Assembly: GCA_043228905.1 (NCBI GenBank)
Contig: JBHGNT010000016.1
Span: 6,262,001 to 6,326,000 of the forward strand
From: Azolla caroliniana
Lineage: Eukaryota; Plantae; Polypodiophyta
Length of the DNA: 64,000 bases
Direction: 5' to 3'
The position numbers and the translations under genes are program-made. Within the stretch, counting starts at the first letter, position 1. Each line of letters starts with the position of its first letter. Positions 14,313 to 42,512 of the stretch are shown one piece after another. The notes below the pieces were generated by a model. It ran no database searches. It was not told the origin of the DNA and saw nothing but the letters and a program-made list of their open reading frames with translations.

Positions 14313-14350
<38 letters not shown>

Positions 14351-14441: not shown

Positions 14442-14487
<46 letters not shown>

Positions 14488-14572: not shown

Positions 14573-14630
<58 letters not shown>

Positions 14631-21357: not shown

Positions 21358-23493
21358 ATGAGGGGATTAGAGCTAGCGGAGGCAATGGCGGTAGCCGTCA
21401 ACCGGCTGGTAAGCGCTTGTGAGGGGACGGGTACCCTCGACAGAACCGTTGAATCGATCGGCGGCACTATAGGCCGGTTCGGAGGGAAAGACGCCACAAG
21501 TTATTTGGAGGCATACCGGGCTGAAATGATCATGAGGGATATCCCGGTGGACATGCGGTTGTCCGGATTCCCTCGGGTGGTGATGTCGAGCATCCATGCG
21601 GAGGTGCTCGAGGTGTTGGCCGGATGCCAGACTTGGGAGGAGTTCGAGTTGCAGCTCCTCGAGAAGTACGGGTTTGACGACTCGCTTCGGCTGTCGAGGC
21701 GGGACTTCATGGCGTGGGTGGAAAGCCCCGGAAAATGGAGGAACACGTTGGCGCTCCTCCAGGAATTCAAAAAACGGTTTGCGCAGCTATCGACGCTGGA
21801 CCGGACCGTGCTCGAAACAAGTCGAGTACTACTGTTTGTCAAGTTGGTGGACACGCTCGACAAGGAAAAGGTGGGTCCCCTATTGGAAACAGATGAAGGG
21901 CTCACGGTAGACTAGGCCGTGGTAAGATGGATATGCAGCCGTTTCGACAAACGGCGCGATTGGAGCGACGAAAGCTCGTCGGGGTCAGGGCCGGTCCCAG
22001 CGAGGAGGCTCGAGGAGCCGGTATCGGTGCCGAGTGGTTGGAAGGAAGAGACCCGAATCTGGCTAGAGTCGGGGTCGGCATCAAATGACGTGGTCAAAGG
22101 CCCATCCGGAGGAGCGGCTCTGGAGGAGCTAACACAAATGGTGCGCGACCTGTAGATCGCACAGGCCCGGAGAGACAGCGGCGAACAACCTCGCGACCGG
22201 AGGCCACCGGCTGGGCAGTGGTGCATGTGGTGTGACGCGATCGGTCACATTCGGAAGGATTGCGCGGATTTCGCCGACGCACTTAGGGCCAACGTGGTGT
22301 ACCCCTGGAACGGGCGGGTGCACGCGAGCGAGACCCGGAGAGCCCTAGAACTGAATACGGGGCGCAACGAAATGAAGAGGTTGATGGAAGAGGCCGCGGC
22401 ACGGCATGTAGAAGCCGTTACCTACTCAGTGTCAGCGGGAATTCGGCTCGGGGGTGACGAGTCCCGAAAGGTGAAGGACTCCAGATTCTGGCCGCTAGTG
22501 CTAGAAGGCTTCTCCGGATTTCGGCTGAAGAAGGAAGAGGCGAACCGCGCGGAACAGCGGGTCCAGGAGGTCACCGAATGGGACGATCCGGTCGAAGAGA
22601 AAACGGGCTTCGTAGAAGCCGCTTGCCAGAATTACAAGGTTCTGGTGGAAGACAAACGAGCAGGAAAGGTCGGGGGGGTGGGTCCCCCGCAGAGGTATGA
22701 GACCCAGTTCGGACCGAAACCGACCGGTGCCGGCAACCCAAGCGCGCCGGACGGAAAGAAGCAGGCGGGGTTTCGGTTGAGCACCGAAATCAAGAGAGCA
22801 ACGGACCTACGAAAGGTCCTTGAAGAGCGGATCCTCAACAGTAAAGTGGAGCTGTCGTTGCGGGAGGTGCTGGGAATCGCCAAGAGGGAGTTCCACGACT
22901 CCATTGTAGACTTGGTGAAGCGGAAGAGGCTCTCGACGGAGCCAGAACCGGAGAAGCCGGTCGAGGTGCGGACTACGCACTTAGAAGACGCGACCCTAGA
23001 AGATGAGTTGGCGGAAAGCCACTACGCGAACCCGCATTGGGCCAGGGCAACTACGGAAACCCCTGTACGGATCGGCGACGTTCCGGAACCGGTGATGGCC
23101 TTGGTAGACCATGGATCCGAAATCAACCTGATGTCCATGGATTTCTACAAGGGGGGTAAATGGCCGATCAACACCAAGCACGGGTGGAAGATACGCGCAG
23201 CGACACGTGCTACGGAGGAGCTGCATGGGGCGTGGCTGTATATACGCATAAAGGTCGGTGACTTCAAGATAGATCAACATTTCTTCGTGTAGGAAACATC
23301 CTCGCAGCCAGTGATTCTCGGTGAACCATACATTACGGCAGCGCGCATGGAGACGAAAGTGTTGGACAACGGTTCGGCGTACGCACGCGTTAAGAGCTAG
23401 GACGGTCGGCATTCTGTCCAATTCATGATCGTACGACCGAACCATGAGAGGAATCGTGAGACCCTCGGCGGCGGCGGCTGAGGGGATTTTTAG
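21358..23493 (+). pseudogene. gag: E1 gag-protease with in-frame stops
   Basis: Collinear with E4 gag; CMWCDAIGHIRKDC knuckle; ALVDHGSEINLM protease; ends GATTTTTAG. Confidence 0.9.
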
Positions 23494-23982
23494 AGAGGGC
23501 TATCAAGGCATGGGGCCACGGTAGTCCAGACGTACCAGAAGAACCCCACATCTGTACCATAGGTAGGAAATTTTGGTTCTCCGACAACGGAGGTTGTACT
23601 ATGGCCGGCGTCAACGGCCGGGAAAGGAAGCGAGCGGAGGAGCGGCTCAGGGGATGCGGAGTCCTCTCCCCCGACGAAGAGATCAGCGAAGCCGTGGAGG
23701 CGGTCTCTTTTGACGACACCTTGGGCGAGTTGCGAAAGGTGATCGGTGAAGACCTTAGAGAACCGGACCGTTCCGGTAGGATCAATGGGAATGTAGGAAG
23801 TCATCACGGACTTCGGGGAAAGGATTGGGTTGGATCGGACGGCCCGCGTCAGTACAAAGTACAAGACTATGGACCGGAAGGTAAGGCCGGTCGCGGCACC
23901 CTTGCCGAAGGGCAACGAGGAGCGAATAAAAGGGGTTGCGTCGGACCCAAGTTTACGGAATCCGGCTGGCATAGGGCACCGG
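23494..23982 (+). pseudogene. pol: E1 pol, 5' part up to the E2 insertion
   Basis: TKYKTMDRKVRPVAAPLP...AGIGHR; resumes at 42513 (RFTDITLRELKVGG). Confidence 0.9.
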
Positions 23983-25273
23983 TGTCGCGTTATTACGCGC
24001 GTGCGTGGAGAAAGCCGGGACCACGGGGGTCTTGGACTAGGGAGTGATGGAGTGTAGGAAGTCGTGCTTCACCGTCTCCGGGGCATCCCAGAAGCACAGC
24101 GGAAGCAACCGAAGAGAGAGAGAGAGAGAGAGAGAGAGACAGTTTAACACCGACTCACGCACACACACTCACACACACACACACAGGCCAACCCGACTCA
24201 CACCCTTAAGTACAGGAAATGCAGGAAGGGGGAAGCACCCGACACCAACGAAGACGCAAATATACACAGACAGACGCAAACGTATATATATATATATATA
24301 AAGAAGAATACATTCCCGGCGTCGAGCCGGCCCGAGGTAGGTTACAGTAGTCGTCAGCTGCCAAGCCGCCGGTCGGGGAGCTCACGGGCTCGTCGCGCTG
24401 TCGAGATATTACGCAAGTGCGTGTGGAATCGAGGCGGGACCGCGGGGGTCTCGAACCAAAGAGCAAGCGAGGGAGGAGAAAGAGAGAGAACCGGCTACGC
24501 AGGACCGGGGATACACAGGGACACGGCCCTTCAACACGGAGAACGCGAACAGACACCGACACAGACAGATGCGAATGACTAAATATGTATATTAACAAAA
24601 TGGCTAACACGACTACAACCCTCGATGGGGCACAGGTTGGTTACAACCGAACAGGCCGGCGAACAGATGCCGATGCCTGTTCGCTTCGACGCACAAAAGG
24701 GGGGGGGGGGGGGTAGCAGGTCGGAGGTGCTGCCGGAAGCACTCGGGCGTTCCTCGAAACAGCGCGAGCCTCCTCGGAACCCTGCACAGAAAGCTATGGA
24801 GCTCAAGAAGGAAGGAGACAGAGGGAGGAGCGTCCAGAAACGGTCCGACAGCACTTCGTCCTCTCAGCCCGGGGATCCCTGCAACAGCTCTTTCCTGCTC
24901 CTTATATAGGCCGACGAGCAGGCCGTCATGTAAGCTTTATTCCCTGTCCCTTTCGAACAGGGATCCGCTCCGTTCTTCGCGCATCCGCGTAGTTACGCCG
25001 TCGATTCGTACAGTTCCTTAGCTCGCGCGCGCGACCGAAAAGACTGTTCGCGCAGTCTTTGTCTCCACTTGTGTTAGGGCCCGTTCCCACCGATTATCCT
25101 CCTAATTCGCTTCTATGTACAACTTGGAGCGCGTGCGCGTGAAGAACCGGTTCCCACGCCTTGGTGCGCCGATTCCGCTTATGGACGGTTTTCTTCACGA
25201 CATCCGCCCCCGCCTAACCGCGCATCCTCCGGTATGCGCCAAGAGAGTTGGGACGGAGAAAACCGGCCCGTCT

Positions 25274-28200
25274 TCATTCCTCGCCCGTCGGTTCTTCCTC
25301 CTTTTCGGATCGTTCGTCACTGCTGACTAGGAGAGCCGGGTCTGGCTCGTCGTCGTGTCGCTTCTTGAACGCTTTGATCCGCTTCCCTGCAACCGGTATC
25401 GCCATTCTCGTGCCGTCGAGTTCCGCCAGGTGATATGTCCCGTTGTCATTGGCGCTCCGTACCACGTAAGGCCCGAACCACCTTCGTGCGAACTTCCGTG
25501 TAGCTCGGTGCTGGTTGTCGAGGCTGCTGTCGTAGACGAGCACCCAGTCACCTTCTTCGATTTTCTTCGGTCGGAGCCGGTGCGTTCGGTCGAACCTGGC
25601 TTTGTTCTTTGTCCTCGCCACCCGGAGCTTCTCCGCAGCCAGTTCCACGTCCTCCGGTCTCCGCTCGAGCTGTCGTATACGCGCGGCCAACAACTCCTCC
25701 CGGCTCATCTCGTCCCTCCAGTCGACCGTTGCCCATGAGGAGATCGTCCGTTCCATCGGCATGATCGGCTTCTGGCCGAACATGAGCTCCGTCGGCATGT
25801 ACCCGGTTACCGAACTGTGCGTAGTCCGGTCTGCCCACAAAGCATAAGGTAGCAGCCGCGGCCAGTCACCGACTCGGCCTCCGCATGCCCGAACCAACGC
25901 CTTGACGATCGGTCCGTGTCCGCACTCCACCTTTCCATTCGCCTCCGGATTGTACGCAGTGGTGAGCGAGAGCTTGACTCCCAACCGGTCGAACAGCTCC
26001 GCGGCTTCTTCGGCGTCCAACTCCCCTCGGTCAGCCACGATCTTCCCGATGCACCCGTACCGGCATATCACGTCCTCGATTACGAACCGACATACGGCCG
26101 CGGTCGTTTTGTTCGGAAGGGCCCGGCCTTCCACCTGGTTCGTCAGATCCTCCCGCGCTAGGACCAGGTACCGCATCTGTCCTACTCCCATTGGCATCGT
26201 TACCAGATCTACCATCCATTTGAAATGGATGGCCGGAGGGTACGTAGGGTGAAGGTCGTCTCGATGTCGGACTATGGAGTGCATCTAACAGCTCTCGCAA
26301 GTTGTCACGAACCGATGCACGTCCCGGTACTGCCCCGGCCACCAATACTTCCCCTTCAGTTTCTCAAACGTAGCCCATGTTCCACGGTGTCCAGCCCAAG
26401 GGCTGTCGTGGTAGGCTGCTAGCAGCTCCTCCTGATCTTCCTTCATTGCCACCACCCGGAGTGGGACGTCGTTCCTCTTCTTCGGGTGCTTCCACAAGTA
26501 TCCATCCCGGAGAAAGAACCGGTACGCTTTCTTCCGGATCCGGTTGGCCTCGTCCTTCGTCCATGACGCATCGGGCGTCATTGTCTTCAAAAACCCACCG
26601 ATCTGCAGCCACTCCCCGTCGTACTTGCTCGCGTCGAAGTCGTTAAGCGCCGGAGTGCTTGTTCCGTCGGTTGTTACATACGCAGTTTCGAAGAAGTCCA
26701 CGCCGACCTCTTCGTCCTCCGAAACCATGCCGCCCTCGTCATCGAATCTCGCCCTTGAAAGCATGTCGGCCATGGCGTTGTCTTTCCCGGAAATGTGTCG
26801 TATTTCCGGGTCTAGGAACTTGATGTACGCTATCCACCTGAGCATTGCCAGGTCCGGCGTCGCGCATCCGGAAACCATGCCGAGAATCGGCATGCAATCC
26901 GTCTCTATGATTACCTCTGTCCCGATCAGATAGTCCTTGTAGGCCTTCACCGCCGAAACGATACCCCAGAGTTCGCGTTTAACCTGGGCGTATCCTCGCT
27001 GCCGCTCACTGAGGACCTTCGCGCCGAATCGGATCGGAAACCGATTGCCGTCCTCGTCTTCTTGGTTGACGACCCACCCGATTCCGGTCGGACTCGTGTC
27101 AACCGTTATGTACACTGGGGTGCCCTTCCTGTAGACGGCCTTTCGGAGCGCCGGTGCTGCCGAAAGAGCCTCCTTCAGCTTCCGGACCGACTCCGTGTGC
27201 TTGTCAAGCCATTCGAATCTTCGCCCTTTCTTCAACAATCCGTACAGCGGCTCCGCGACGTGCGCGTAATGCGGGATCCATATGTGGTAGAAGGCGCATG
27301 CTCCCAAGAATCTTCCTACTTCCGTGACCGAGCTGCAATCAGGCTTCATCGCGGAGATGGCTTCTACCTTTGCCGGAGACGGTTTCCGGCCATATGGTCC
27401 ACATAAATGTCCGACCACCATGATTTCCGACTGCCCGAAGGCTGACTTCTCCCCTGAGAAGGTGAGCCTCGCATCCTCCAGCCTTTGCAGCACCTTCTCG
27501 CAGTCGTCGATGTGCGTCATCACGAACCGCCGGCATCCACCCGGCCCGATCATCTCGTCCTTCTCTTCTACCGGGCATCCCTTGATCAGGATGTCGTCTA
27601 GAAACGGCATGGTGATGTCCGGGATGCAGTCCCTCAGCACCTTGTTCATTGCATTCACCATGTGGGCCACCGAGTTGGTCCCTCCTTGCGGCAGCGTACA
27701 CATCCGCACTAGGCCGAGGGGAGTTCGCATCGTCGTAATGTCTCTGCTCTCCACGGCTAGCTGGAACTGGTCGTACCCTGAGTATAGATCACCGACCGAG
27801 TAAATCGACCTTCCGGCGAAGGCCTCCGCGAACTCGTCTATGGTCGGTCCGATCCCTGCGTTCCGAATGGTCACTCTGTTGACCGGCTGCAGGTCCTGAA
27901 TGAAGCGCAATGATCCGTTTTTCTTTGGTACGGTAAACCATCGGTTTGAATACGGGGCGCTCGACGGCTCGAGAATGCCCATATCAACTTTCTGCTTCAA
28001 CAGCTCCATCAACTTCGGGATGTGAGCTCTCGGAACCGGAATTGGCTTGAGATTCCACGGTACATGCGGTACCGTGAATATCACCATCGGTTCTACTATC
28101 GTCGGGTCTACGCACCCGATTTCCTCCGGTGAGAATGCGAAGGCTTTCCCGTGCCTTCCGAGCATTCTCCGAAACCGGTCTTCCTCCGCCGGTAGTAGGA

Positions 28201-28760
28201 GCCCGCCCCCACCGATTTTGAGCTCCCGGAGCGTCTCGTTGGTGAAGGTGTGTCCTATGCAGGCCGGATCTCGTAAGCTGGGGTCCGATGCAACCCCTTT
28301 GATTCGCGACTCGCTGCCCTCCGGTAAGGGCGCCGCAACTGGCCTCACCTTCCGGTCCACAGTCTTGTACTTGGTGCTAACTCGGGCCGTCCGTTCCGAC
28401 TCGAGCCCTCGACCGAAGTCCGCGATGACTTCGTACATTTCTTCGGAACATACCGGTATCGTCCGGTCTTCGTTAAGGTCTTCTTCGACTACCTTCCCCA
28501 GCATTCCCAAGGTGTCGTCGAAGGAGACTGCCTCCACGGCTCCGTTGATTTCTTCGTCAGGGCCGAGAACTCCGCACGCCCGAAGTCTCCCCTCCGTCTT
28601 TGTTTTCTCTCGGCCGGCGATGCCGACCATCGTACATGCTCCGCTGTCGGAGAAGCAAAATTTCCTACCTATTGTACACGGTTTTATCGTGCAGATGTGG
28701 GATTTTCCCGGAGCATCCGGACTGTCGCGGCCTCACGCCTTGGCAGTCCTCTCTAAAAAT
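25274..28760 (-). pseudogene. pol: E3 pol (RT-RNaseH-IN), one nonsense codon at 26285
   Basis: ORFs 26285-28630 and 25274-26284 are in frame and nearly identical to E4 Pol; CAG>TAG. Confidence 0.92.
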
Positions 28761-30501
28761 CCTCTCAGTTTTCGGAACCGAGGGAGTCGCGGTTACGTTC
28801 GTGGTTCGGCCGTACCGTCAGAAACTGGACCGAATGGCGCCCGTCTTGGCTTTTGACCCTCGCGTAGGCCGAACCATTGTCCAGCACCTTGGTCTCCATT
28901 CGCGTCGCTGTGATGTACGGCTCTCCCAGTATGACCGGATGCGAAGACGTCTCCTACACGAAGAAGTGTTGGTCAATCTCGACGTCGTCGATCTTAACTC
29001 GCACATTCGGACAGGCCCCGTGCAGTTCCTCGGTGGCGCGCGTTGCTGCCCTTATTTTCCACCCGTGCTTGGTGTTGATCGGCCATTTGCCCTTCTTATA
29101 GAAGTCCATGGACATCAAATTGATCTCCGATCCATGGTCCACCAAAGCTATCGCCGGTTCCTGGACATCGCCGATCGTCCTGGGCCCGGTCGTCCCGGGT
29201 TTCCCCACCCGCTTCTCTTCTACCAGGGCCTCGTAGTTCTGGCAAGCGGCTTCCACGAAGCCCGTCTTTTCCTCGACAGGGTCGCTCCACCCGGTCATCT
29301 CCCGTACCCGTTTCTCCGCACGGTCCGATTCCTCCCTTTTAAGCCTTGCACCGGCAAGGCCTTCCAGCATCGTCGGCCAGAATCCGGCTTTGCTTTCCCT
29401 TCGGGCCTCGCCGCCCCCGACTCGAATGCCGGCCGACGCCGAGTAGTGGACGGTTTCCGCGTGTCGGGCCGCCACCTCTTCCATCAACCTTTTCATACCA
29501 CCTCGCCCGTCGTTTCGGCTCAGGGCCCTTCGGGTGTCGCTGGCATGAACCCGTCCTTCCCACAGGTACACCACCCTGTTCCTCAGCGCCTCCGCGAAGT
29601 CGCCGCAGTCCTTCCGAATGTGGCCGACTTCATCGCACCACATGCACTTGTTTCCTGCCGCCGGCCGTCGGTCACGAGCCGGTTCGCCACCTTCCCTTCG
29701 GGCTTGCGCGATTTGGAGGTCCTTTATCGCCCTCGTCAATTCCTCCAGCGCCGCTCCTCCGGTTGAGCCTCTGACTACGCCGGTCGAAGCCGAACCGGTT
29801 TCCAACCACTCTCGGGTCTCTTCCTTTCGCACCTGTGGCGCTGGTTCGAGCTTCCTTGCCGCGACCGAGCCCGACCCGGCTGCCCCGTTATCCGCCCATT
29901 CTCGCCGTTTGTCGAAACGACCACAGACTTTCTTGACAGCCACCTAGTCGGTAGTGAGCCCGTCTTCGGTTTCCAGCAAGAGGCCCACGTGCTCCCGATC
30001 CCGCTCGTCGACCGACTTGACAAACAGCAAGACCCGGCTCGTGTCCAGGATGGTTCGGTCGAGCGCCGAAAGGCGCGCAAAGTTTTCCTCGAACTCCCGG
30101 AGGAGTGCCGACGCGTTTCTTCCCTTCCCCGTGGACTCCACCCATTCCATGAACCTTCGCTTCGAAAGCCGGAGCGCGTCGTCCAGCCCGTATTTCTCTA
30201 GGAGCCGACCTTCGAACTCCTCCCAAGTACGGCTCTCCGCCCGCACCTCGAGCACCTCCGCATGGATGCTCGGCATCGCCACTCGGGGAAATCCGCCAAG
30301 ACGCCTTTCTTCCGGAATGTCCCGCATCAGCATCTCTGCACCGTAGGACGCCAAATACTTCGTGGCATCCTTCCCATCGAACCAGCCGATCGTGCCGACG
30401 ACCGCCTCAATAGCTCTGTCGAGGGCACCGGTGCCCTCGCGCGCGTTTACAATCCGATCCACGGCCGAAGCCATGGCCTCTGCAAGATCCGACCCCCTCA
30501 T
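28753..30501 (-). pseudogene. gag: E3 gag-protease, two nonsense codons and an in-frame internal deletion
   Basis: Stops at 29944 and 28954; TTGP joined to IGDVQEP. Confidence 0.92.
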
Positions 30502-32089
30502 CTTCTGCTCTTCTGCCGCCTCCTTCACGTCGGGTTCACCAAAGATGTCGAGATATTACGCAAGTGCGTGTGGAATCGAGGCGGGACCGCGGGGGTCTCG
30601 AACCAAAGAGCAAGCGAGGGAGGAGAAAGAGAGACAACCGGCTACGCAGGACCGGGGATACACAGGGACACGGCCCTTCAGCACGGAGAACGCGAACAGA
30701 CACCGACACAGACAGATGCGAATGACTAAATATGTATATTAACAAAATGGCTAACACGACTACAACCCTCGATGGGGCACAGGTTGGTTACAACCGAACA
30801 GGCCGGCGAACAGATGCCGATGCCTGTTCGCTTCGACGCACAAAAGGGGGGGGGGGGGGGGTAGCAGGTCGGAGGTGCTGCCGGAAGCACTCGGGCGTTC
30901 CTCGAAACAGCGCGAGCCTCCTCGGAACCCTGCACAGAAAGCTATGGAGCTCAAGAAGGAAGGAGACAGAGGGAGGAGCGTCCAGAAACGGTCCGACAGC
31001 ACTTCGTCCTCTCAGCCCGGGGATCCCTGCAACAGCTCTTTCCTGCTCCTTATATAGGCCGATGAGCAGGCCGTCATGTCAGCTTTATTCCCTGTCCCTT
31101 TCGAACAGGGATCCGCTCCGTTCTTCGCGCATCCGCGTAGTTACGCCGCCGATTCGTACAGTTCCTTAGCTCGCGCGCGCGACCGACAAGACTGTTCGCG
31201 CAGTCTTTGTCTCCACTTGTGTTAGGGCCCGTTCCCGCCGATTATCCTCCTAATTCGCTTCTATGTACAACTTGGAGCGCGCGCGCGTTGTCTAGATATT
31301 ACGCAAGTGCGTGTGGAAACGAGGCGGGACCGCGGGGGTCTCGAACCAAAGAGCAAGCGAGGGAGGATAAAGAGGGAGAACCGGCTACGCAGGACCGGGG
31401 TTTCACAGGGACACGGCCCTTCAGCACGGAGAACGCGAACGGACACCGACACAGATAGATGCGAATGACTAAATATGTATATTAAAAAAAAAAATGGCTA
31501 GCACGACTACAACCCCCGGTGGGGCACAGGTTGGTTACAACCGAACAGGCCGGCGAACAGATGCCGATGCATGTTCGCTTCAACGCACAAAGGGGAGGTA
31601 GCAGGTCGGAGGTGCTGCCGGAAGCACTCGGGCGTTCCTCGAAACAGCGCGAGCCTCCTCGGAACCCTGCACAGAGAAGCTATGGAGCTCAAGAAGGAAG
31701 GAAACAGAGAGAGAAGCCTCCAGAAACGGTCCGACAGCACTTCCTCCTCTCTGCGCGATCCCCCCCTCAAACAGCTCTTTCCTGCTCCTTATATATCTCG
31801 ACGAGCAGGCCGTCATGTCAGCTTTATCCCCTGTCCCTTTCGAACAGGGATCCGCTCCGTTCTTCACGCATACGCGTAGTTACGCCGCCGACTCGTGCCG
31901 TCCCTTAGCTCGCGCGCGCGACCGAAAAGACTGTTCGCGCTGTCTTTGTCTCCACTCGTGTTAGGGCCCGTTCCTGCCGATTACCCTCCTAACTCGCTTC
32001 TATGTTCGACTTGGAGCGTGCGGGCGTGAGGAACCGGTTCCCACGCCTCGGTCTGCCGATTCCGCTTATGGACGGTTTTCTTCACGACA

Positions 32090-32108
32090 TCCGCCCCCAC
32101 CTAACCGC
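32090..32108 (-). promoter_or_regulatory. E4 polypurine tract
   Basis: GCGGTTAGGTGGGGGCGGA abutting the 3' LTR; near-identical tracts in E0, E1, E2, E3. Confidence 0.85.
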
Positions 32109-32160
32109 GCATCCTCCGGTATGCGCCAAGAGAGTTGGGACGGAGAAAACCGGCACGTCT

Positions 32161-35100
32161 TCATTCCTCGCCTGTCGGTTCTTCCTCGTTTTCGGATCGT
32201 TCGTCACTGCTGACCAGGAGAGCCAGGTCTGGCTCGTCGTCGTGTCGCTTCTTGAACGCTTTGATCCGCTTCCCTGCAACCGGTATCGCCATTCTCGTGC
32301 CGTCGAGTTCCGCCAGGTGATATGTCCCGTTGTCATTGGCGCTCCGTACCACGTAAGGCCCGAACCACCTTCGTGCGAACTTCCGTGTAGCTCGGTGCTG
32401 GTTGTCGAGGCTGCTGTCGTAGACGAGCACCCAGTCACCTTCTTCGATTTTCTTCGGTCGGAGCCGGTGCGTTCGGTCGAACCTGGCTTTGTTCTTTTTC
32501 CTCGCCACCCGGAGCTTCTCCGCAGCCAGTTCCACGTCCTCCGGTCTCCGCTCGAGCTGTCGTATGCGCGCGGCCAACAACTCCTCCCGGCTCATCTCGT
32601 CCCTCCAGTCGACCGTTGCCCACGAGGAGATCGTCCGTTCCATCGGCATGATCGGCTTCTGGCCGAACATGAGCTCCGTCGGCATGTACCCGGTTACCGA
32701 ACTGTGCGTGGTCCGGTCTGCCCACAAAGCATAAGGTAGCAGCCGCGGCCAGTCACCGACTCGGCCTCCGCATGCCCGAACCAACGCCTTGACGATCGGT
32801 CCGTGTCCGCACTCCACCTTTCCATTCGCCTCCGGATTGTACGCAGTGGTGAGCGAGAGCTTGACTCCCAGCCGGTCGAACAGCTCCGCGGCTTCTTCGG
32901 CGTCCAACTCCCCTCGGTCAGCCACGATCTTCCCGACGCACCCGTACCGGCATATCACGTCCTCGATTAGGAACCGGCATACGGCCGCGGTCGTTTTGTT
33001 CGGAAGGGCCCGGCCATCCACCTGGTTCGTCAGATCCTCCCGCGCTAGGACCAGGTACCGCATCTGTCCTACCCCCATTGGCATCGTCACCAGATCTACC
33101 ATCCATTTGAAGTGGATGGTCGGAGGGTACGTGGGGTGAAGCTCGTCCCGATGTCGGACTATGGAGTGCATCTGACAGCTCTCGCAAGTTGTCACGAACC
33201 GATGCACGTCCCGGTACTGCCCCGGCCACCAATACTTCCCCTTCAGTTTCTCAAACGTAGCCCATGTTCCACGGTGTCCAGCCCAAGGGCTGTCGTGGTA
33301 GGCCGTCAGCAGCTCCTCCTGTTCTTCCTTCATCGCCACCACCCGGAGCGGAGCGCCGTCCCTCTTCTTCGGGTGCTTCCATAGATAGCCATCCCGGAGA
33401 AAGAACCGGTACGCTTTCTTCCGGATCCGGTTGGCCTCGTCCTTCGTCCATGACGCATCGGGCGTCATTGTCTTCAAAAACCCACCGATCTGCAGCCACT
33501 CCCCGTCGTACTTGCTCGCGTCGAAGTCGTTAAGCGCCGGAGTGCTTGTTCCGTCGGTTGTTACATACGCAGTCTCGAAGAAGTCCACGCCGACCTCTTC
33601 GTCCTCCGAAACCATGCCGCCCTCGTCATCGAATCTCGCCCTTGAAAGCATGTCGGCCATGGCGTTGTCTTTCCCGGAAATGTGTCGTATTTCCGGGTCC
33701 AGGGACTTGATGTACGCTATCCACCTGAGCATTGCCAGGTCCGGCGTCGCGCATCCGGAAATCATGCCGAGAATCGGCATGCAATCCGTCTCTATGATTA
33801 CCTCTGTCCCGATCAGATAGTCCTTGTCGGCCTTCACCGCCGAAACGATACCCCAGAGTTCGCGTTTAACCTGGGCGTATCCTCGCTGCCGTTCGCTGAG
33901 GACCTTCGCGCCGAATCGGATCGGAAACCGATTGCCATCCCCGTCTTCTTGGTTGACGACCCACCCGATTCCGGTCGGACTCGTGTCAACCGTTATGTAC
34001 ATTGGGGTGCCCTTCCCGGAGACGGCCTTTCGGAGCGCCGGTGCTGCCGAAAGAGCCTCCTTCAGCTTCCGGACCGACTCCGTGTGCTTGTCAAGCCATT
34101 CGAATCTTCGCCCTTTCTTCAATAATCCGTACAGCGGCTCCGCGACGTGCGCGTAATGCGGGATCCATATGTGGTAGAAGGCGCATGCCCCCAAGAATCT
34201 TCGTACTTCCGTGACCGAGCTGCAATCAAGCTTCATCGCGGAGATGGCTTCTATCTTTGCCGGAGACGGTCTCCGGCCATATGGTCCACATAAATGTCCG
34301 ACCACCATGATTTCCGACTGCCCGAAGGCTGACTTCTCCCCCGAGAAGGTGAGCCTCGCATCCTCTAGCCTTTGTAGCACCTTCTCGCAGTCGTCGATGT
34401 GCGTTACCACGAATCGCCGGCATCCGTCCGGCCCGATCGTCTCGTCCTTCTCTTCTTCCGGGCATCCCTTGATCGGGATGTCGTCTAGAAACGGCATGGT
34501 GATGTCCGGGATGCAGTCCCTCAGCACCTTGTTCATTGCATTCACCATGTGGGCCACCGAGTTGGTCCCTCCTTGCGGCAGCGTACACATCCGCACTAGG
34601 CCGAGGGGAGTTCGCATCGTCGTAATGTCTCTGCTCTCCACGGCTAGCTGGAACTGGTCGTACCCTGAATATAGATCACCGACCGAGTAAATCGACCTTC
34701 CGGCGAAGGCCTCCGCGAACTCGTCTATGGTCGGTCCGATCCCTGCATTCCGAATGGTCACCCTATTGACCGGTTGCAGGTCCTGAATGAAGCGCAATGA
34801 TCCGTTTTTCTTTGGTACGGTAAACCACCGGTTCGAGTACGGGGCGCTCGACGGCTCGAGAATGCCCATATCAACTTTCTGCTTCAACAGCTCCATCAAC
34901 TTCGGGATGTGAGCTCTCGGAACCGGAATTGGCTTGAGATTCCACGGTACATGCGGTACCGTGAATATCACCATCGGCTCTACGATCGTCGGGTCTACGC
35001 ACCCGATTTCCTCCGGTGAGAATGTGAAGGCTTTCCCGTGCCTTCCGAGCATCCTCCGAAACCGGTCTTCCTCCACCGGCAGTAGGAACCCGCCCCCACC

Positions 35101-35649
35101 GATCTTCAGCTCGCGGAGCGTCTCGTTGGTGAAGGTGTGTCCTATGCAGGCCGGATCCCGTAAGCTGGGGTCCGATGCAACCCCTTTGATTCGGGATTCG
35201 CTGCCCTCCGGTAAGGGCGCCGCAACTGGCCTCACCTTCCGGTCCACAGTCTTGTACTTGGTGCTAACTCGGGCCGTCCGTTCCGACTCGAGCCCTCGAC
35301 CGAAGTCCGCGATGACTTCGTACATTTCTTCGGAACATACCGGTATCGTCCGGTCCTCGATAAGGTCTTCTTCGACTACCCTCCCCAGCATTCCCAAGGT
35401 GTCGTCGAAGGAGACTGCTTCCACGGCTCCGTTGATTTCTTCGTCAGGGCCGAGAACTCCGCACGCCCGAAGTCTCCCCTCCGTCTTTGTTTTCTCTCGG
35501 CCGGTGATGCCGACCAACGTACATGCTCCGCTGTCGGAGAAGCAAAATTTCCTACCTATTGTACACGGTTTTATCGTACTGATGTGGGGTTTTCCCGGAG
35601 CATCCGGACTGTCGCGGCCCCACGCCTTGGCAGTCCTCTCTAAAAATCC
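32161..35649 (-). CDS. pol: E4 Pol (RT-RNaseH-integrase, no chromodomain), entered by predicted -1 frameshift
   Basis: Frame open from 35679 to 32161; LPQG/FLDD RT, TVDTS RNaseH, HHCC + DDE + GPY integrase. Confidence 0.95.
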   Translation of the reverse strand, partial: GFLERTAKAWGRDSPDAPGKPHISTIKPCTIGRKFCFSDSGACTLVGITGREKTKTEGRLRACGVLGPDEEINGAVEAVSFDDTLGMLGRVVEEDLIEDRTIPVCSEEMYEVIADFGRGLESERTARVSTKYKTVDRKVRPVAAPLPEGSESRIKGVASDPSLRDPACIGHTFTNETLRELKIGGGGFLLPVEEDRFRRMLGRHGKAFTFSPEEIGCVDPTIVEPMVIFTVPHVPWNLKPIPVPRAHIPKLMELLKQKVDMGILEPSSAPYSNRWFTVPKKNGSLRFIQDLQPVNRVTIRNAGIGPTIDEFAEAFAGRSIYSVGDLYSGYDQFQLAVESRDITTMRTPLGLVRMCTLPQGGTNSVAHMVNAMNKVLRDCIPDITMPFLDDIPIKGCPEEEKDETIGPDGCRRFVVTHIDDCEKVLQRLEDARLTFSGEKSAFGQSEIMVVGHLCGPYGRRPSPAKIEAISAMKLDCSSVTEVRRFLGACAFYHIWIPHYAHVAEPLYGLLKKGRRFEWLDKHTESVRKLKEALSAAPALRKAVSGKGTPMYITVDTSPTGIGWVVNQEDGDGNRFPIRFGAKVLSERQRGYAQVKRELWGIVSAVKADKDYLIGTEVIIETDCMPILGMISGCATPDLAMLRWIAYIKSLDPEIRHISGKDNAMADMLSRARFDDEGGMVSEDEEVGVDFFETAYVTTDGTSTPALNDFDASKYDGEWLQIGGFLKTMTPDASWTKDEANRIRKKAYRFFLRDGYLWKHPKKRDGAPLRVVAMKEEQEELLTAYHDSPWAGHRGTWATFEKLKGKYWWPGQYRDVHRFVTTCESCQMHSIVRHRDELHPTYPPTIHFKWMVDLVTMPMGVGQMRYLVLAREDLTNQVDGRALPNKTTAAVCRFLIEDVICRYGCVGKIVADRGELDAEEAAELFDRLGVKLSLTTAYNPEANGKVECGHGPIVKALVRACGGRVGDWPRLLPYALWADRTTHSSVTGYMPTELMFGQKPIMPMERTISSWATVDWRDEMSREELLAARIRQLERRPEDVELAAEKLRVARKKNKARFDRTHRLRPKKIEEGDWVLVYDSSLDNQHRATRKFARRWFGPYVVRSANDNGTYHLAELDGTRMAIPVAGKRIKAFKKRHDDEPDLALLVSSDERSENEEEPTGEE
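35584..35649 (-). promoter_or_regulatory. Predicted -1 ribosomal frameshift signal: G_GAU_UUU, 6-nt spacer, H-type pseudoknot
   Basis: GGATTTT-TAGAGA-GGACTG..GTGGGG..CAGTCC..CCCCAC; equivalent at E1 23484-23548 and E3 about 28697-28762. Confidence 0.8.
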
Positions 35650-37766
35650 TCTCGGTTTTCGGAACCGAGGGAGTCGCGGTTACGTTCGTGGTTCGGCCGT
35701 ACCGTCAGAAACTGGACCGAATGGCGCCCGTCTTGGCTTTTGACCCTCGCGTAGGCCGAACCGTTGTCCAGCACCTTGGTCTCCATCCGCGCCGCCGTGA
35801 TGTACAGCTCTCCCAGTATGACCGGATGCGAAGACGTCTCCTGCACGAAGAAGTGCTGGTCAATCTCGACGTCGCCGATCTTGACTCGCACATTCGGACA
35901 GGCCCCGTGCAGCTCCTCGGTGGCGCGCGTTGCCGCCCTTAGTTTCCACCCGTGCTTGGTGTTGATCGGCCATTTGCCCTTCTTATAGAAGTCCATGGAC
36001 ATCAAGTTGATCTCCGATCCGTGGTCCACCAAAGCTATCACCGGTTCCTGGACATCGCCGATCTTCACCGGGGTTTCCGTGGTCGCTCGGGCCCAGTGTG
36101 GTCTCGAATAGTGGCTTTCCGCCCACTCGTCTCCCAGCGCCATGTCGTCTAGGTGCGTCGTCCGCACTTCCACCGGTCTTTCCGGTTCTGTCTCTGTTGA
36201 CAGCCTCTTCCGTTTCACCAAGTCCACGATGGAGTCGTGGAACTCCTTCTTGGCGATTCCCAGCACCTCTCGTAACGACAGCTCCACCCTGATGTCGAGG
36301 ATCCGTTCCTCCAGGACCTTTCGTAAGTCCGTGGTCCTTTCTATCTCCGTCCCCAGACGGTACCCGCCCTTCTGGGGTTTATCTTTCGTACCGGCCCCGC
36401 CGGCTTCGTCCCGTCGTGGCCCGGACCGGTTCTCGTATCGTTGTGAGGGCCCGGTCGTCCCGGGTTTCCCCACCCGCTTCTCTTCTACCAGAGCCTCGTA
36501 GTTCTGGCAAGCGGCTTCCACGAAGCCCGTCCTCTCCTCGACCGGGTCGCTCCACCCGGTTATCTCCCGTACCCGTTTCTCCGCGCGGTCCGATTCCTCC
36601 CCTTTAAGCCTTGCACCGGCAAGGCCTCCCAGCATCGTCGGCCAGAATCCGGCTTTGCTTTCCCTTCGGGCCTCGCCGCCCCCGACTCGAATGCCGGCCG
36701 ACGCCGAGTAGTGGACGGTTTCCGCGTGTCGGGCCGCCGCCTCTTCCATCAACCTTTTCATACCGCCTCGCCCGTCGTTTCGGCTCAAGGCCCTTCGGGT
36801 GTCGCTGGCATGCACCCGCCCTTCCCACAGGTACACCACCCTGTCCCTTAGCGCCTCCGCGAAGTCGCCGCAGTCCTTCCGAATGTGGCCGACTTCATCG
36901 CACCACATGCACCTGTTTCCTGCCGCCGGCCGTCGGTCACGAGCCGGTTCGGCACCTTCCCTTCGGGCTTGCGCGATTTGGAGGTCCTTTACCGCCCTCG
37001 TCAATTCCTCCAGCGCCGCTCCTCCGGTTGAGCCTCTGACTACGCCGGTCGAAGCCGAACCGGTTTCCAACCACTCTCGGGTCTCTTCCTTTCGCACCTG
37101 TGGCGCTGGTTCGAACTTCCTTGCTGCGACCGAGCCCGACCCGGTTACCCCGTTATCCGCCCATTCTCGCCGTTTGTCGAAACGGCCACAGACCTTCTTG
37201 ACAGCCGCCCAGTCGGTAGTGAGCCCGTCTTCGGTTTCCAGCAAGAGGCCCACTTGCTCCCGATCCCGCTCGTCGACCGACTTGACAAACAGCAAGACCC
37301 GGCTCGTGTCCAGGATGGTTCGGTCGAGCGCCGAAAGGCGCGCAAAGTTTTCCTCGAACTCCCGGAGGAGTGCCGACGCGTTTCTTCCCTTCCCCGGGGA
37401 CTCCACCCATTCCATGAACCTTCGCTTCGAAAGCCGGAGCGCGTCATCCAGCCCGTATTTCTCTAGGAGCCGACCTTCGAACTCCTCCCAGGTACGGCTC
37501 TCCGCCCGCACCTCGAGCACCTCCGCATGGATGCTCGGCATTGCCACTCGGGGAAATCCGCCAAGACGCCTTTCTTCCGGAATGTCCCGCATCAACATTT
37601 CTGCACCGTAGGACGCCAGATACTTCGTGGCATCCCTCCCATCGAACCGGCCGATCGTGCCGACGACCGCCTCAATAGCTCTGTCGAGGGCACCGGTGCC
37701 CTCGCGCGCGTTTACAATCCGATCCACGGCCGAAGCCATGGCCTCTGCAAGATCCGACCCCCTCAT
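35640..37766 (-). CDS. gag: E4 Gag-protease polyprotein (first ATG at 37766; an in-frame GTG lies inside the PBS)
   Basis: Uninterrupted ORF; CX2CX4HX4C knuckle; ALVDHGSEINLM...VILGE aspartic protease. Confidence 0.95.
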   Translation of the reverse strand: MRGSDLAEAMASAVDRIVNAREGTGALDRAIEAVVGTIGRFDGRDATKYLASYGAEMLMRDIPEERRLGGFPRVAMPSIHAEVLEVRAESRTWEEFEGRLLEKYGLDDALRLSKRRFMEWVESPGKGRNASALLREFEENFARLSALDRTILDTSRVLLFVKSVDERDREQVGLLLETEDGLTTDWAAVKKVCGRFDKRREWADNGVTGSGSVAARKFEPAPQVRKEETREWLETGSASTGVVRGSTGGAALEELTRAVKDLQIAQARREGAEPARDRRPAAGNRCMWCDEVGHIRKDCGDFAEALRDRVVYLWEGRVHASDTRRALSRNDGRGGMKRLMEEAAARHAETVHYSASAGIRVGGGEARRESKAGFWPTMLGGLAGARLKGEESDRAEKRVREITGWSDPVEERTGFVEAACQNYEALVEEKRVGKPGTTGPSQRYENRSGPRRDEAGGAGTKDKPQKGGYRLGTEIERTTDLRKVLEERILDIRVELSLREVLGIAKKEFHDSIVDLVKRKRLSTETEPERPVEVRTTHLDDMALGDEWAESHYSRPHWARATTETPVKIGDVQEPVIALVDHGSEINLMSMDFYKKGKWPINTKHGWKLRAATRATEELHGACPNVRVKIGDVEIDQHFFVQETSSHPVILGELYITAARMETKVLDNGSAYARVKSQDGRHSVQFLTVRPNHERNRDSLGSENREDF

Positions 37767-37788
37767 CTTCTGCTCTTCTGCCGCCTCT

Positions 37789-37806
37789 TTCACGTCGGGT
37801 TCACCA
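37789..37806 (-). promoter_or_regulatory. Primer binding site complementary to tRNA-Trp(CCA)
   Basis: TGGTGAACCCGACGTGAA, 4 nt from the LTR; complementary to the plant cytosolic tRNA-Trp 3' end TTCACGTCGGGTTCACCA as recalled. Confidence 0.8.
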
Positions 37807-39259
37807 AAGATGTCTAGATATTACGCAAGTGCGTGTGGAAACGAGGCGGGACCGCGGGGGTCTCGAACCAAAGAGCAAGCGAGGGAGGATAAAGAGGGAG
37901 AACCGGCTACGCAGGACCGGGGTTTCACAGGGACACGGCCCTTCAGCACGGAGAACGCGAACGGACACCGACACAGACAGATGCGAATGACTAAATATGT
38001 ATATTAAAAAAAAAAATGGCTAGCACGACTACAACCCCCGGTGGGGCACAGGTTGGTTACAACCGAACAGGCCGGCGAACAGATGCCGATGCCTATTCGC
38101 TTCAACGCACAAAGGGGGGGTAGCAGGTCGGAGGTGCTGCCGGAAGCACTCGGGCGTTCCTCGAAACAGCGCGAGCCTCCTCGGAACCCTGCACAGAGAA
38201 GCGATGGAGCTCAAGAAGGAAGGAAACAGAGAGAGAAGCCTCCAGAAACGGTCCGACAGCACTTCCTCCTCTCTGCGCGATCCCCCCCTCAAACAGCTCT
38301 TTCCTGCTCCTTATATATCTCGACGAGCAGGCCGTCATGTCAGCTTTATCCCCTGTCCCTTTCGAACAGGGATCCGCTCCGTTCTTCACGCATACGCGTA
38401 GTTACGCCGCCGACTCGTGCTGTCCCTTAGCTCGCGCGCGCGACCGAAAAGACTGTTCGCGCGGTCTTTGTCTCCACTCGTGTTAGGGCCCGTTCCTGCC
38501 GATTACCCTCCTAACTCGCTTCTATGTTCGACTTGGAGCGTGCGGGCGTGAGGAACCGGTTCCCACGCCTCGGTCTGCCGATTCCGCTTATGGACGGTTT
38601 TCTTCACGACAGCGTGAAGAACCGGTTCCCACGCCTTGGTGCGCCGATTCCGCTTATGGACGGTTTTCTTCACGACAGCGCCGAGCGGGGTCTTGCGCAG
38701 GAGATGAGCTGAAGCAAACCCTAAGCGAACACAAAGGGGGAGAAGAAGAAGAAACTAACTCTAAACCTAACGGTATACCCTCTAATGCAAAATGGGCAAC
38801 CCTTTCACAAAGGGCATTCCCTTCCTTTTATAGAACAAGGACAGGGATGCGTTACAATGTGGGATAAACCCCCACTTACATGGGACCGTCTGTCCCGACT
38901 TGACTACTCTTCGGCGCCATAAAGGTGCCCTCGTTATTCACACTAAATGTACATGGGTGCTTACACACGCTGCACCCCGCCGATGTAGCCAATTTTTCCC
39001 GGTTTCCGCCTCTGGCCGAAATTCTTCACGACATCCGCCCCCACCTAACCGCACATCCACCGGTATGTGCCAAGTCCGGTTGAAGGGTGAGAGATTTCGG
39101 CTGGTGAGAAACCGGTCTTCCATGATCCGCATCCCGGCTCGCTACCGGTTTGACCCGTCGGCTTCGATTCTTCCTTCGCGCTTACCTCCCCGTAGGCTCG
39201 TTCGACCCGTCGATGGGTCCTCTATCACGATCTCCGTAGTACGCGTACTTCCGTTGGCC

Positions 39260-40170
39260 CTTGCTCGGCCGTATGAACGCCCCGCTCCCGTCGTATGCCC
39301 TTGTCGGCTCCTTCCGAAACCTCGTGTCGTCGGGTCCCGTTCCCTGCCACCACCAACCTTCTCTCTCGGTCTCATGTTGCCACATTGGCCGAACTGCCGG
39401 AGTCTCCGGATCGGTGTGAGGGTCCCATAGGACCGGACTCCGTTTCTATGCTTGCCGAAATTCAGGTGCCTTTTGTTTGAGTCCCTCCCGGACTCTCCTC
39501 GTGTCTTCCGCATAGCCAGGTCCCGTTTCCCGCCGCCACCTTCCTTCTCCCTCGGTCTTACGTTGCCACGTTGGCTGAACAACCGGGGTCTCCAGTTCGG
39601 TGTGGGGATCCCGTAGGACCGGACTTCCTTACGCCCTTCGGCCTTCGTCACCTCACCGCCACCGTCAGTATCTTGGTCTTACGTCAACCGTGTTGCCGAC
39701 TGCCGAAGTCTCTAGAACCGGTGTGAAGGATCCTCCGTAGACCGCCCACCCGTAGCCCCTTTGCCTTCGTCACCTCGCCGCCACCGTCAGTATCTTGGTC
39801 TTACGTCGACCGCGTTGCCGACTGCCGAAGTCTCTAGAACCGGTGTGAAGGATCCTCCGTGGGCCTCTGATTTGTCTTCTCGACCTTGTCCCGGGTCGTC
39901 CTTTTCCGCATGCCGAGAGGGTGTTTTGTTCCGCACCCTCTCCCGTGGTACCGACGTACCGTGTCCTCAGCCTCTTCGTAGGCCAGCTCTCTTCCTCCCT
40001 CCCGGAATGGTCATCCGGGAGTCCGCTCCGCCCGGTTCTCGCTCGGGTCCGTTCGTCATTCTCCGGATTGCCGAGTCCCGTTCTCCTGTCGCCACCGATC
40101 TCTCTTATAGGACTCACGCCGGCACTCGGGCCGGCAGCCGGATCGGTGTAAGGAACTCCATAGGACCGGC
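39260..40170 (-). repeat. E2 3' internal array of degenerate GC-rich units, including a near-exact 122-bp tandem pair
   Basis: CCTTCGTCACCTC(A/G)CCGCCACCGTCAGTATCTTGG at 39642 and 39764; same unit family as 4060-6200. Confidence 0.75.
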
Positions 40171-40268
40171 TTTCATTCTCCTTCCAACTCTCGACCTTCG
40201 CCCGGTCGGTCTTTCTCCCCATGTAAAAGAGGGCAACTCGTCCCGCACCCCCTTCCGTATCATCACTT

Positions 40269-41681
40269 TCACGCCGAATCCGGCCCCGATCGAACGATCC
40301 ACGACCGAATCACGTTCCACTCGTATCGGAATGCCGATCTCCTCGTGCCGCGTCCGTTCTCGGCCTCCTCACAAGCCATTTCCCATCCATCTTCGCTGGC
40401 ATCGTGCCAGGACTCCTCGGTATCGCCATCCATCTCCTCGGTCTTACATGGGCATACAGGCCCGAATGCCGAGTTCTCCGGAATCGGGTCCGTGGGCTTT
40501 CGTCCGTTCCTTCCCCGTATCCTCTCGTCGGTGATTCTTGGCCTTTCGCCGCCGCCTTCCTCCGCTTGGGACTCACGTGGGCACTCGGGCCCGACTGCCA
40601 TCGTCTCGGGAGCAAGTGTGGGAAGACACAAAGAATCGCCCGTCCGTTTTACGCCCTTGTCCATAGCCACCGACTCTTCGTGTTCGGCGGTCGTCTTCTT
40701 ACCGATCGCGCAAGCCCCGTCTGGGCTTGCTTCTCCAATGACCGGGATCTCGGGCTGACACGCCCGAAACCGCCGGTCCCAACGTTCCAGTTCCGCGATC
40801 TGTACCTCGGCCTCGTCCTTGGCCGTTCTATCTCCGCAAGTCGAGAGGGCGTTTCGTTCCGCACCCTCTCCCGTGGTACCGTCGTACCGATCTTCCGCCG
40901 TCGCGTGGGGCAAGTCCGTCTTCTCAATCTCGGCTTGTGGCCTCCGTCTTTCCTCTTCCTCGAGCATCGCCTTGAGAGCTGCGTACGCCTCCGCAATCCT
41001 GGCCCCAACGCCGACCCTTGCCGACTCTCTTTGTCGTTCGGCCTCTTTCCGCTGTGATGGCACGCTGTCGCGCCCCTTTCTCTTAGCCTTCTCGGCTCGC
41101 TCATCATCTAGCCGTTGGCACACCCTTCCGACCTTCGACCAGTCCTCCGTAAGCCCATTCGCTCCATCATCTTCTTCGAGCTCAATCCCGATGGCCTCTC
41201 GTTCCGCTCGGTCGATCGACCTGACGAACAATAGGACCTTGTCCGCCCCCACCAAACCTTGTTCCCGCTCCGGGAGCCGAGCAAGCCGCCGCTCGAACTC
41301 TCGAAACGCCTTGGCAGCGCCTCGGTGGGTCTTCGACGATGCTACCCACTGGTCGAAGTCGTGCCATCCCCAGCTCTTCCACCGTCCTCCATATGCCTTC
41401 AGGAGCACCTCTTCGAAGGCCTCCCACAAACTATGAGCCTCAAGGAGCTCCTTTATTTCCGCATGCATCCGGACAGCCACGACCCGACAGAAGAACTCCA
41501 GCCTTAATGCCTCGTCTACGCCACGCTCCTCCATTTCCGCGTTGTCCCCGTTGAAACGGCCGACTCTTTCGACCACTCGCTCAGCCACTTGTTGCGCTGC
41601 TTCTCGCCTCATCACCACTCGTGCCGACTCCAACACCACTTCAGTCACCATCTCCGCAAGGTCGTCGTCTTCCAACTCCAT
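40269..41681 (-). CDS. gag: E2 Gag-like protein (470 aa): N-half homologous to E4 Gag, unrelated charged C-half, no knuckle or protease
   Basis: VGRFNGDNA, FREFERRLARL, KVLLFVRSID, GLTEDWSKVGRVC align with E4 IGRFDGRDA, LREFEENFARL, RVLLFVKSVD, GLTTDWAAVKKVC. Confidence 0.75.
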   Translation of the reverse strand: MELEDDDLAEMVTEVVLESARVVMRREAAQQVAERVVERVGRFNGDNAEMEERGVDEALRLEFFCRVVAVRMHAEIKELLEAHSLWEAFEEVLLKAYGGRWKSWGWHDFDQWVASSKTHRGAAKAFREFERRLARLPEREQGLVGADKVLLFVRSIDRAEREAIGIELEEDDGANGLTEDWSKVGRVCQRLDDERAEKAKRKGRDSVPSQRKEAERQRESARVGVGARIAEAYAALKAMLEEEERRRPQAEIEKTDLPHATAEDRYDGTTGEGAERNALSTCGDRTAKDEAEVQIAELERWDRRFRACQPEIPVIGEASPDGACAIGKKTTAEHEESVAMDKGVKRTGDSLCLPTLAPETMAVGPECPRESQAEEGGGERPRITDERIRGRNGRKPTDPIPENSAFGPVCPCKTEEMDGDTEESWHDASEDGWEMACEEAENGRGTRRSAFRYEWNVIRSWIVRSGPDSA

Positions 41682-41845
41682 CCTCCCTTTCCGCCTTTCA
41701 TGTCGGGTTCATCAAAGATGTCGCGTTGTTACGCGCGTGCGTGGAGAAAGGCGGGACCATGGGGGTCTTGGACTAGGGAGTAATGGAGCGTAGGAAGTCG
41801 TGCTTCACCGTCTCCGGGGCATCCCAGAAGCACACCGGAAGCAAC

Positions 41846-41884
<39 letters not shown>

Positions 41885-42029
41885 TTTAACACCGACTCAC
41901 GCACACACACTCACACACACACACACACACACAGGCCAACCCGACTCACACCCTTAAGTACAGGAAATGCAGGAAGGGGGAAGCACCCGACACCAACGAA
42001 GACGCGAATATACACAGATAGACGCAAAC

Positions 42030-42065
<36 letters not shown>

Positions 42066-42512
42066 AAGAATACATTCCCGGCGTCGAGCCGACCCGAGGT
42101 AGGTTACAGTAGTCGTCAGCTGCCAAGCCGCCGGTCGGGGAGCTCACGGGCTCGTCGCGTCGAGCGGGGTCTTGCGCAGGAGATGAGTTGAAGCAAACCC
42201 TAAGCGAACACGAAGGGGGAGAAGAAGAAGAAACTAACTCTAAACCTAATGGTATACCCTCTAATGCAAAATGGGCAACCCTTTCACAAAGGGCGTTCCC
42301 TTCCTTTTATAGAACAAGGACAGGGATGCGTTACAATGTGGGATAAACCCCCACTTACATGGGACCGTCTGTCCCGACTTGACTACTCTTCAGCGCCATA
42401 AAGGCGCCCTCGTTATTCACACTAAATGTACATGGGTGCTTACACACGTTGCACCCCGCCGATGTAGCCAATTTTTCCCGGTTTCCGCCTCTGGCCGAAA
42501 TTCTTCACGACA

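Follow-up and report, generated by a model that had tools for sequence, protein, structure and literature searches.

A candidate programmed −1 frameshift cassette behind the protease of a Phygy-like Ty3/gypsy family in Azolla, and a sister clade that may shift by −2

This study concerns a Ty3/gypsy retrotransposon with long terminal repeats (LTRs) from the fern Azolla caroliniana and the junction between its two open reading frames (ORFs). The element occupies positions 31289-38611 (7323 bp, minus strand) of a 64,000-nucleotide stretch of contig JBHGNT010000016.1 (positions 6,262,001 to 6,326,000; assembly GCA_043228905.1), which we refer to as the window and whose numbering is used throughout. 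Its first frame encodes Gag and a protease (Gag-PR), and its second frame, shifted by −1, encodes reverse transcriptase, RNase H and integrase (RT-RH-IN, together Pol). From a comparison of the junction across related elements, we propose that this family very probably uses programmed −1 frameshifting after the protease. A fraction of ribosomes would slip back by one base at the heptamer G_GAU_UUU and thereby produce a Gag-PR-RT-RH-IN fusion, and an H-type pseudoknot, predicted to lie 6 nt downstream, would stall ribosomes at the heptamer. In a sister clade with a spacer of only 5 nt, Pol lies in a different frame, and a −2 shift becomes a candidate.

Results

ORF1, which encodes Gag-PR (35640..37820, minus strand; 726 codons from stop to stop, first ATG at 37766), ends in GAG GAT TTT TAG, with the TAG at 35642-35640. 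Its last two codons (Asp-Phe) belong to the heptamer G_GAU_UUU, which is found at 35649-35643 of the minus strand, just where the initial annotation of the window had proposed a slippery site. The Gag-PR stop codon begins the 6-nt spacer UAGAGA (35637..35642, minus strand). ORF2 (32161..35679, minus strand; 1172 codons) runs in the −1 frame, overlaps ORF1 by 40 nt and has its first methionine at residue 97, in agreement with the annotated overlap of about 40 nt and lack of a nearby ATG. Likewise, the earlier reference to GGAUUUU as a −1 site of umbra- and dianthoviruses is borne out: both virus groups are listed with G_GA at the P site, an accepted exception to the X_XXY_YYZ pattern, and pea enation mosaic virus is listed with G_GAU_UUU (PMC5009743). 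Slippage would take place in tandem, with GAU UUU re-pairing as GGA UUU before UUA GAG is read, and probably in a minority of passages; judging from the layout, the protease would then be made at the level of Gag, and RT-RH-IN alone would be rationed.

The position of the shift relative to the protease depends on the nature of the domain upstream. Within ORF1, a CCHC knuckle at residue 304 and a DUF4100 domain (Pfam) precede the putative protease, which carries a D-H-G motif at 36026-36018 (minus strand). The protease had no Pfam match when the whole of ORF1 was searched and no match in a PDB sequence search, and Asp_protease_2 was matched weakly in 18 of 43 aligned homologs. A structural model of the last 170 ORF1 residues (mean predicted local distance difference test score 80.7), however, led in a fold search to Ddi1 and retroviral proteases, with E-values down to 6e-7. 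As modelled, the domain before the shift site is a retropepsin-fold protease; therefore the frame break follows the protease, where the initial annotation had placed it. On this fold, D-H-G replaces the D-T/S-G motif in 110 of 120 homologs, and a literature search on a D-H-G protease motif returned nothing. ORF2 begins with a linker, followed by RT (residues 288-462), RNase H (528-657) and integrase (784-949). Some 125 poorly conserved codons (35640-35260, minus strand) separate the shift site from a conserved KYKTVDRKV motif ahead of the RT.

The end of Gag-PR is conserved in a set of 120 homologous proteins that includes moss, liverwort and fern representatives (Physcomitrium patens, Riccia sorocarpa and Adiantum nelumboides among the named ones). 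The residues that follow the protease differ among these proteins in number and kind, yet the terminal dipeptide is constant: 61 proteins end in DF, 25 carry 4-5 further residues after DF or GF, five end in GF or NF and two in VFD or VFY, which makes 93 of the 120 that stop at or just past DF, GF, NF or VF. Four others have different short ends, three lack the anchor and 20 run on. The signal is weaker in more distant proteins, where 69 short-tailed sequences comprise 25 with DF, five with GF or NF, ten with the dipeptide 4-5 residues earlier and 29 without it, many of these being fragments.

For the underlying DNA, metagenome contigs were scanned and yielded 80 loci with 58-96% protease identity, most of them from one series of related assemblies. 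Of these, 75 passed a filter that asked for a heptamer from a short list of our own and, behind it, for a hairpin in which six or more of eight pairs form; five did not, being truncated or rearranged. Collapsing at 93% identity gave 42 non-redundant junctions, 40 of them in frame, and the heptamer is in the 0-frame phase in the same proportion (40/42). In the 40 in-frame junctions, the heptamer reads G_GAU_UUU in 32, G_GAU_UUC in three, G_GGU_UUU and G_GUU_UUU in two each and G_GUU_UUC in one, with G_GGU_UUU and G_GUU_UUC also being listed slippery types; 38 of them have a spacer of 6 nt, within the 5-9 nt of canonical −1 signals, and the remaining two have one of 5 nt. The silent positions of the heptamer are fixed beyond codon usage: its Asp codon is GAT in 35/35 cases (upstream background 211/354), the base before this codon is G in 39/39 (1731/5811 third positions), and its Phe codon is TTT in 36/39 (82/193). 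Where at least 100 open codons follow, Pol opens in the −1 frame at 33 of 35 junctions; loci L098 and L131 are decayed −1 types rather than +1 types. In three lineages, the −1 frame is open just one codon ahead of the P site, so that a shift could occur nowhere but at the heptamer.

The heptamer is kept in 30/30 close copies and in 28/30 copies of the family of E1, a diverged element of the same window. The family is large, with 2720 candidate junction places in the genome. A 32-nt cassette pattern occurs there 1554 times in exact form and its reversed control not once; as the signal also persists in relatives whose protease identity is as low as about 60%, the cassette is not a product of chance. 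A scan of viral contigs revealed no relatives.

Downstream of the spacer, a 31-nt hairpin is predicted (35606..35636, minus strand), whose stem 1 consists of outer arms at 35636-35629 and 35613-35606 and an inner GGC/GCC helix (35626-35624 with 35618-35616), 8 to 12 pairs in all. The initial annotation had described GGACTG and CAGTCC, 6 nt after the heptamer, as a stem; this pairing holds, not as a 6-bp stem but as the outer part of the longer hairpin. The loop sequence GUGGGG (35618..35623, minus strand) would form the 5' strand of stem 2 and matches CCCCAC (35584..35589, minus strand), the annotated partner, across a 16-nt loop 3 (35605-35590). E1 likewise keeps the heptamer (23484-23490, plus strand), a stem GGGCTATC/GGTAGTCC with one G-C to A-U change, and TGGGG/CCCCA, all as annotated. 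The claim of covariation drawn from this comparison fared less well, in that the change is there, but a single compensatory change between two copies proved little.

The family-wide comparison is more informative. An alignment of 43 hairpins has no internal gaps over the 31 nt, and 83% of the cells of the 12 stem-1 pairs are paired, as against 25-39% in slid controls; ten of the 12 pairs have changed on both sides, and the outer eight are almost always formed, the inner four being looser. Under a tree-based null model, the stem-1 pairs 5-27, 2-30 and 8-24 rank second, third and seventh of 703 (E = 0.07, 0.13 and 0.22), an enrichment in the top seven with a hypergeometric p of 1.3e-4. Each of these three pairs joins a third codon position to a first position of the Pol frame, and keeping the pair therefore costs an amino-acid change. 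For stem 2, 4-8 bp can form between the loop and a segment that lies, as a rule, 11-17 nt further downstream. Pairing with the loop's own partner amounts to 15.4, compared with 13.4 ± 0.33 for swapped partners (reached in 0 of 20000 permutations) and 11.3 for shuffles, and the swap test restricted to 15 deep lineages gives p = 1.5e-4. By this comparative evidence, stem 1 is well supported as a real structure, while stem 2, and with it the H-type pseudoknot, likely forms but is not proven. The annotated covarying pseudoknot is thus upheld across the family for stem 1 by compensatory changes and for stem 2 in the aggregate, but not for stem 2 pair by pair. A scan of positions 35400-35900 against Rfam found no match at E-values up to 5.

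Several observations weigh against a programmed shift with this architecture. Twenty of the 120 proteins continue past the site, mostly Physcomitrium gene models with several different Pol joins, and our own heptamer list and the pairing filter inflate the apparent conservation of the DNA loci. In the tree-based test, no single pair reached E < 0.05, the pair at the top of the ranking lies outside the predicted structure, and none of stem 2 was conspicuous, because a sequence-only alignment of its 3' strand slips along the C run. Comparisons of sister pairs, few of which are informative, gave four for and three against stem 1, which is not significant, and seven for and two against stem 2 among 21 (p = 0.18). 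Finally, the focal hairpin, a weak member of the family, folds no better than shuffled sequences (z = -0.74; E1 -0.64), with values of -2.0 to -4.2 in four relatives.

Some of these results would suit a simpler stimulator, in which the frameshift is real but stem 2 does not form and slippage is promoted by nothing more than the stem-loop, or else by the stop codon next to the site. To the stem-2 results just given one may add that loop 3 ranges from about 11 to 17 nt, that some lineages have just four stem-2 pairs, and that, in pea enation mosaic virus, it makes a difference whether a stop lies close to G_GAU_UUU (PMC5009743). We nevertheless regard this alternative as rather unlikely: the stem-2 swap tests are significant, distant lineages change loop and downstream segment together (GCGAGA/UCUCGC, UGAGGGU/ACCCUCA, ACAGGG/CCCUGU and GCAGGGA/UCCUUGC), and a sense codon, not a stop, follows the heptamer in several lineages.

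An intron that joins Gag-PR to RT-RH-IN, as in Ogre elements, would likewise reconcile the two frames, with UUUUUAG serving as a 3' splice site or a nearby GU as a donor. This appears very improbable. The frames overlap and leave no gap, as against an average of 274 bp in Ogre (PMC6317226), AG follows the U run in only 18 of 40 junctions, and neither the fixed spacer nor the fixed −1 phase would be needed for splicing. Gene models, moreover, disagree on the joins: Physcomitrium models (P0030-P0035, P0042, P0052 and others) connect Gag-PR and Pol by differing predicted introns, which are likely annotation artefacts of the frameshift. Splicing of the two frames is also what the initial annotation had named as the observation that would overturn its reading, and no splice joint or indel over 32120-37790 occurs in 1271 polyA reads (three runs of one study), but the reads are low in depth, cover both strands and stem from an organism that is related (mostly 90-95% alike), which makes this weak evidence; contigs from two runs (X6 and X7) bear on presence alone.

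It would be hardly credible that the frame break reflects decay, an indel that arose by polymerase slippage and was copied in a non-autonomous family, or stop-codon readthrough. Many copies do contain random stops, and a run of five Ts could slip in transcription or reverse transcription. Yet the same break is shared by lineages that as much as about 0.8 substitutions per site separate, the RNA reads show no indel at the junction, and, in the 5-nt-spacer clade described below, the T run has the same length in 83 of 83 copies. Readthrough was rejected, because the 0 frame closes 23 codons on and Pol is never reached.

The −1 frame, the heptamer phase, the spacer and a stem-loop with a pairing loop, as first annotated, thus extend over the 40 junctions; what the annotation had overlooked is a sister clade with Pol in the +1/−2 frame. 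It is represented by two loci, L107 (2836-2909) and L120 (2498-2571), which are 86% identical over 696 columns and group together with strong support, amid −1 lineages (quick LG+G4 tree, midpoint root). Both read CAG GTT TTT [G/T]AC TAG, that is AG_GUU_UUU, with a spacer of 5 nt and both stems kept; the −1 frame closes after two and seven codons, and Pol is open for 984 and 986 codons in +1/−2. The 5-nt cassette has 95 exact matches in this genome (for instance at C1:909507), 83/83 anchored genome copies are equal in length across the T run, and of six whole copies one has both ORFs uninterrupted and another nearly so. A single indel therefore does not account for the 5-nt junction. Whole copies with both LTR ends in view have the same primer site as the focal element.

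How the 5-nt clade would reach Pol is a matter of several readings, of which we tentatively rank a −2 slip first. On GUU UUU, a −2 slip gives UUU as the A-site codon, so the change from GAU to GUU would let the Phe tRNA of the A site re-pair two bases back. Against this, AGG would offer the P-site tRNA a poor match for re-pairing, and one clade amounts to one event. A +1 slip would reach the same frame, with a product that differs from that of a −2 slip by one residue, and seems rather unlikely. Reinitiation, a lesser but somewhat better possibility, draws on in-frame AUGs 26 and 17 nt before the Gag-PR stop in the two members; on the other hand, the position of this AUG differs between the two families, it stems from Asp-rich codons, and the clade has kept the U run, the spacer and both stems. 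Any other mechanism would be improbable. Separate production of Pol, from an AUG of its own or by termination and reinitiation, is thus a live option for the 5-nt clade, but highly unlikely for the main family: in their best frames, the other 38 junctions all lack such an AUG, and the first one downstream comes at distances between 8 and 332 nt.

The focal element itself is young, with TG...CA LTR ends, a primer binding site and the domain order PR-RT-RH-IN. Its 5' LTR (37811..38611, minus strand; 801 bp) and 3' LTR (31289..32089, minus strand) agree at 794 of 801 positions and are flanked by GCGT, a 4-bp target duplication of the NCGN type. The primer binding site (37790..37806, minus strand) is a 17-nt match to the 3' end of tRNA-Trp(CCA), and all four genomic matches retrieved for it (4/4) are tRNA-Trp(CCA) genes. 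A G-rich tract adjoining the 3' LTR (32090..32101, minus strand) is likely the polypurine tract. From the end of ORF2 to the 3' LTR there are 71 nt, the internal part being filled by the coding region. Pfam matched a single RNase H region and no chromodomain in ORF2; there is no second (archaeal-type) RNase H and no extra ORF.

With its NCGN target duplication and tRNA-Trp primer site, the element bears the features by which REXdb marks the Phygy lineage (PMC6317226), which it further resembles in the absence of a chromodomain or extra ORF and in its close Physcomitrium homologs; the nearest named protease matches are Physcomitrium proteins with 60-70% identity. At 7323 bp it falls slightly below the Phygy size range of 7656-9968 bp, which derives from Physcomitrella alone (PMC6317226), and it has homologs outside the mosses as well, in liverwort and fern. 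Judged by its named homologs, the likely host would be a moss or some other non-seed plant. The ORF layout of Phygy is given as not determined in REXdb (PMC6317226).

Four related elements are nested four deep in the window at 20606-46257, two of them inside another element's LTR, and all four have NCGN target duplications (GCGT, GCGC, CCGG and ACGG). The focal element is inserted into the LTR of a sister element, E2 (24399-38677, duplication GCGC), whose decayed cassette (28697..28762, minus strand) has one altered loop base. The outermost, E1 (20606-46257, duplication ACGG), is diverged and split by the nested insertions, and its cassette (23484..23549, plus strand) is likewise decayed; in E1 and E2 alike, a TGA lies two codons or fewer before the heptamer's Asp codon. 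The third element of the nest (23983-42512) has related LTRs and only about 2.7 kb of internal sequence of its own (39034-41718, with one 479-codon ORF), and may be non-autonomous; a region at about 4200-8400 of the window resembles it. A tandem array of two minus-strand elements that share one LTR was ruled out, as the target duplications show nesting. Elsewhere in the window, 131-nt repeats form short arrays at 14315-14725 and 16468-16860. In the genome, matches to the tRNA-Trp 3' end cluster at C8:17.80-17.82 Mb and C16:4.99-5.11 Mb with a spacing of about 1.2 kb, possibly as tRNA gene arrays.

Discussion

The proposed layout has a close counterpart among the alpharetroviruses. The slippery site of Rous sarcoma virus is A_AAU_UUA, whereas that of the focal element is G_GAU_UUU. 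In this virus, the protease belongs to the Gag frame (PMC12789967), and a −1 shift close to where gag ends, accompanied by a pseudoknot, opens pol (PMC5009743); the focal element resembles Rous sarcoma virus and the avian sarcoma-leukosis viruses in this order of Gag-PR followed by a −1 shift into Pol. A protease made at the level of Gag is already known from Rous sarcoma virus, and the main mechanism is of a known kind. Unlike an alpharetrovirus, the focal element is a plant LTR retrotransposon without env, and its protease motif is D-H-G, not D-S-G; the likeness in layout is likely convergent. With pea enation mosaic virus 2, as with red clover necrotic mosaic virus, it shares the heptamer and a stop codon close behind (PMC5009743). 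These viruses, however, use a bulged stem-loop with a partner kilobases away, whereas the partner predicted here lies 11-17 nt downstream in a compact H-type fold.

Among plant retrotransposons, Ogre and Retand also have a break between protease and RT (REXdb Additional file 5, PMC6317226), but Ogre has a gap and splicing and Retand a single stop codon, as opposed to the overlapping frames of the focal element. Tcn1 and Selgy have overlapping frames as well, but before the protease (PMC6317226). No lineage is listed with GAG-PROT overlapping RT-RH-INT in the REXdb lineage table (PMC6317226), and the word 'frameshift' is not used in the available passages of PMC7466625. Full-text searches on frameshifting or these lineages brought up no account of the focal signal and none of a retrotransposon that shifts by −2; as they mostly did not extend to subscription papers, absence from print is not established.

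For the 5-nt clade, the nearest parallel is the −2 site G_GUU_UUU of the virus of the porcine reproductive and respiratory syndrome, an arterivirus that makes nsp2TF by this shift and likewise has a −1-frame stop just behind the site (bioRxiv 2021.11.17.468997). In this virus, a protein complex bound 10 nt downstream takes part and no RNA structure, in contrast to the predicted cis-acting pseudoknot of the 5-nt clade. Other −2 cases are Trichomonas vaginalis virus 1 (CC_CUU_UUU) and phage Mu. Spacers 1-2 nt shorter than the −1 optimum favour −2 slippage (Lin et al. 2012, PMC3458567), as found with U6A reporters, whereas the 5-nt clade would be a natural site derived from a −1 site. It is conceivable, if a good deal short of assured, that the Phygy-type lineage has an alpharetrovirus-like −1 shift after the protease and that one of its clades has switched to a pseudoknot-driven −2 shift by the change from GAU to GUU and the loss of one spacer base, with the pseudoknot kept.

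For the family as a whole, the junction gives structure-function studies a plant −1 cassette that is compact, abundant and available in about 40 natural variants, and a frameshift after the protease would explain the introns that gene predictors invent at this place. The effect of spacer length on the direction of slippage has so far been known from engineered reporters (PMC3458567). If the switch to −2 is true, these elements would repeat in nature the spacer-length experiment that underlies the mRNA-tension model, either state being present at high copy number in one genome, and the 5-nt and 6-nt clades would be a matched natural pair on whether spacer length alone sets the direction of the slip.

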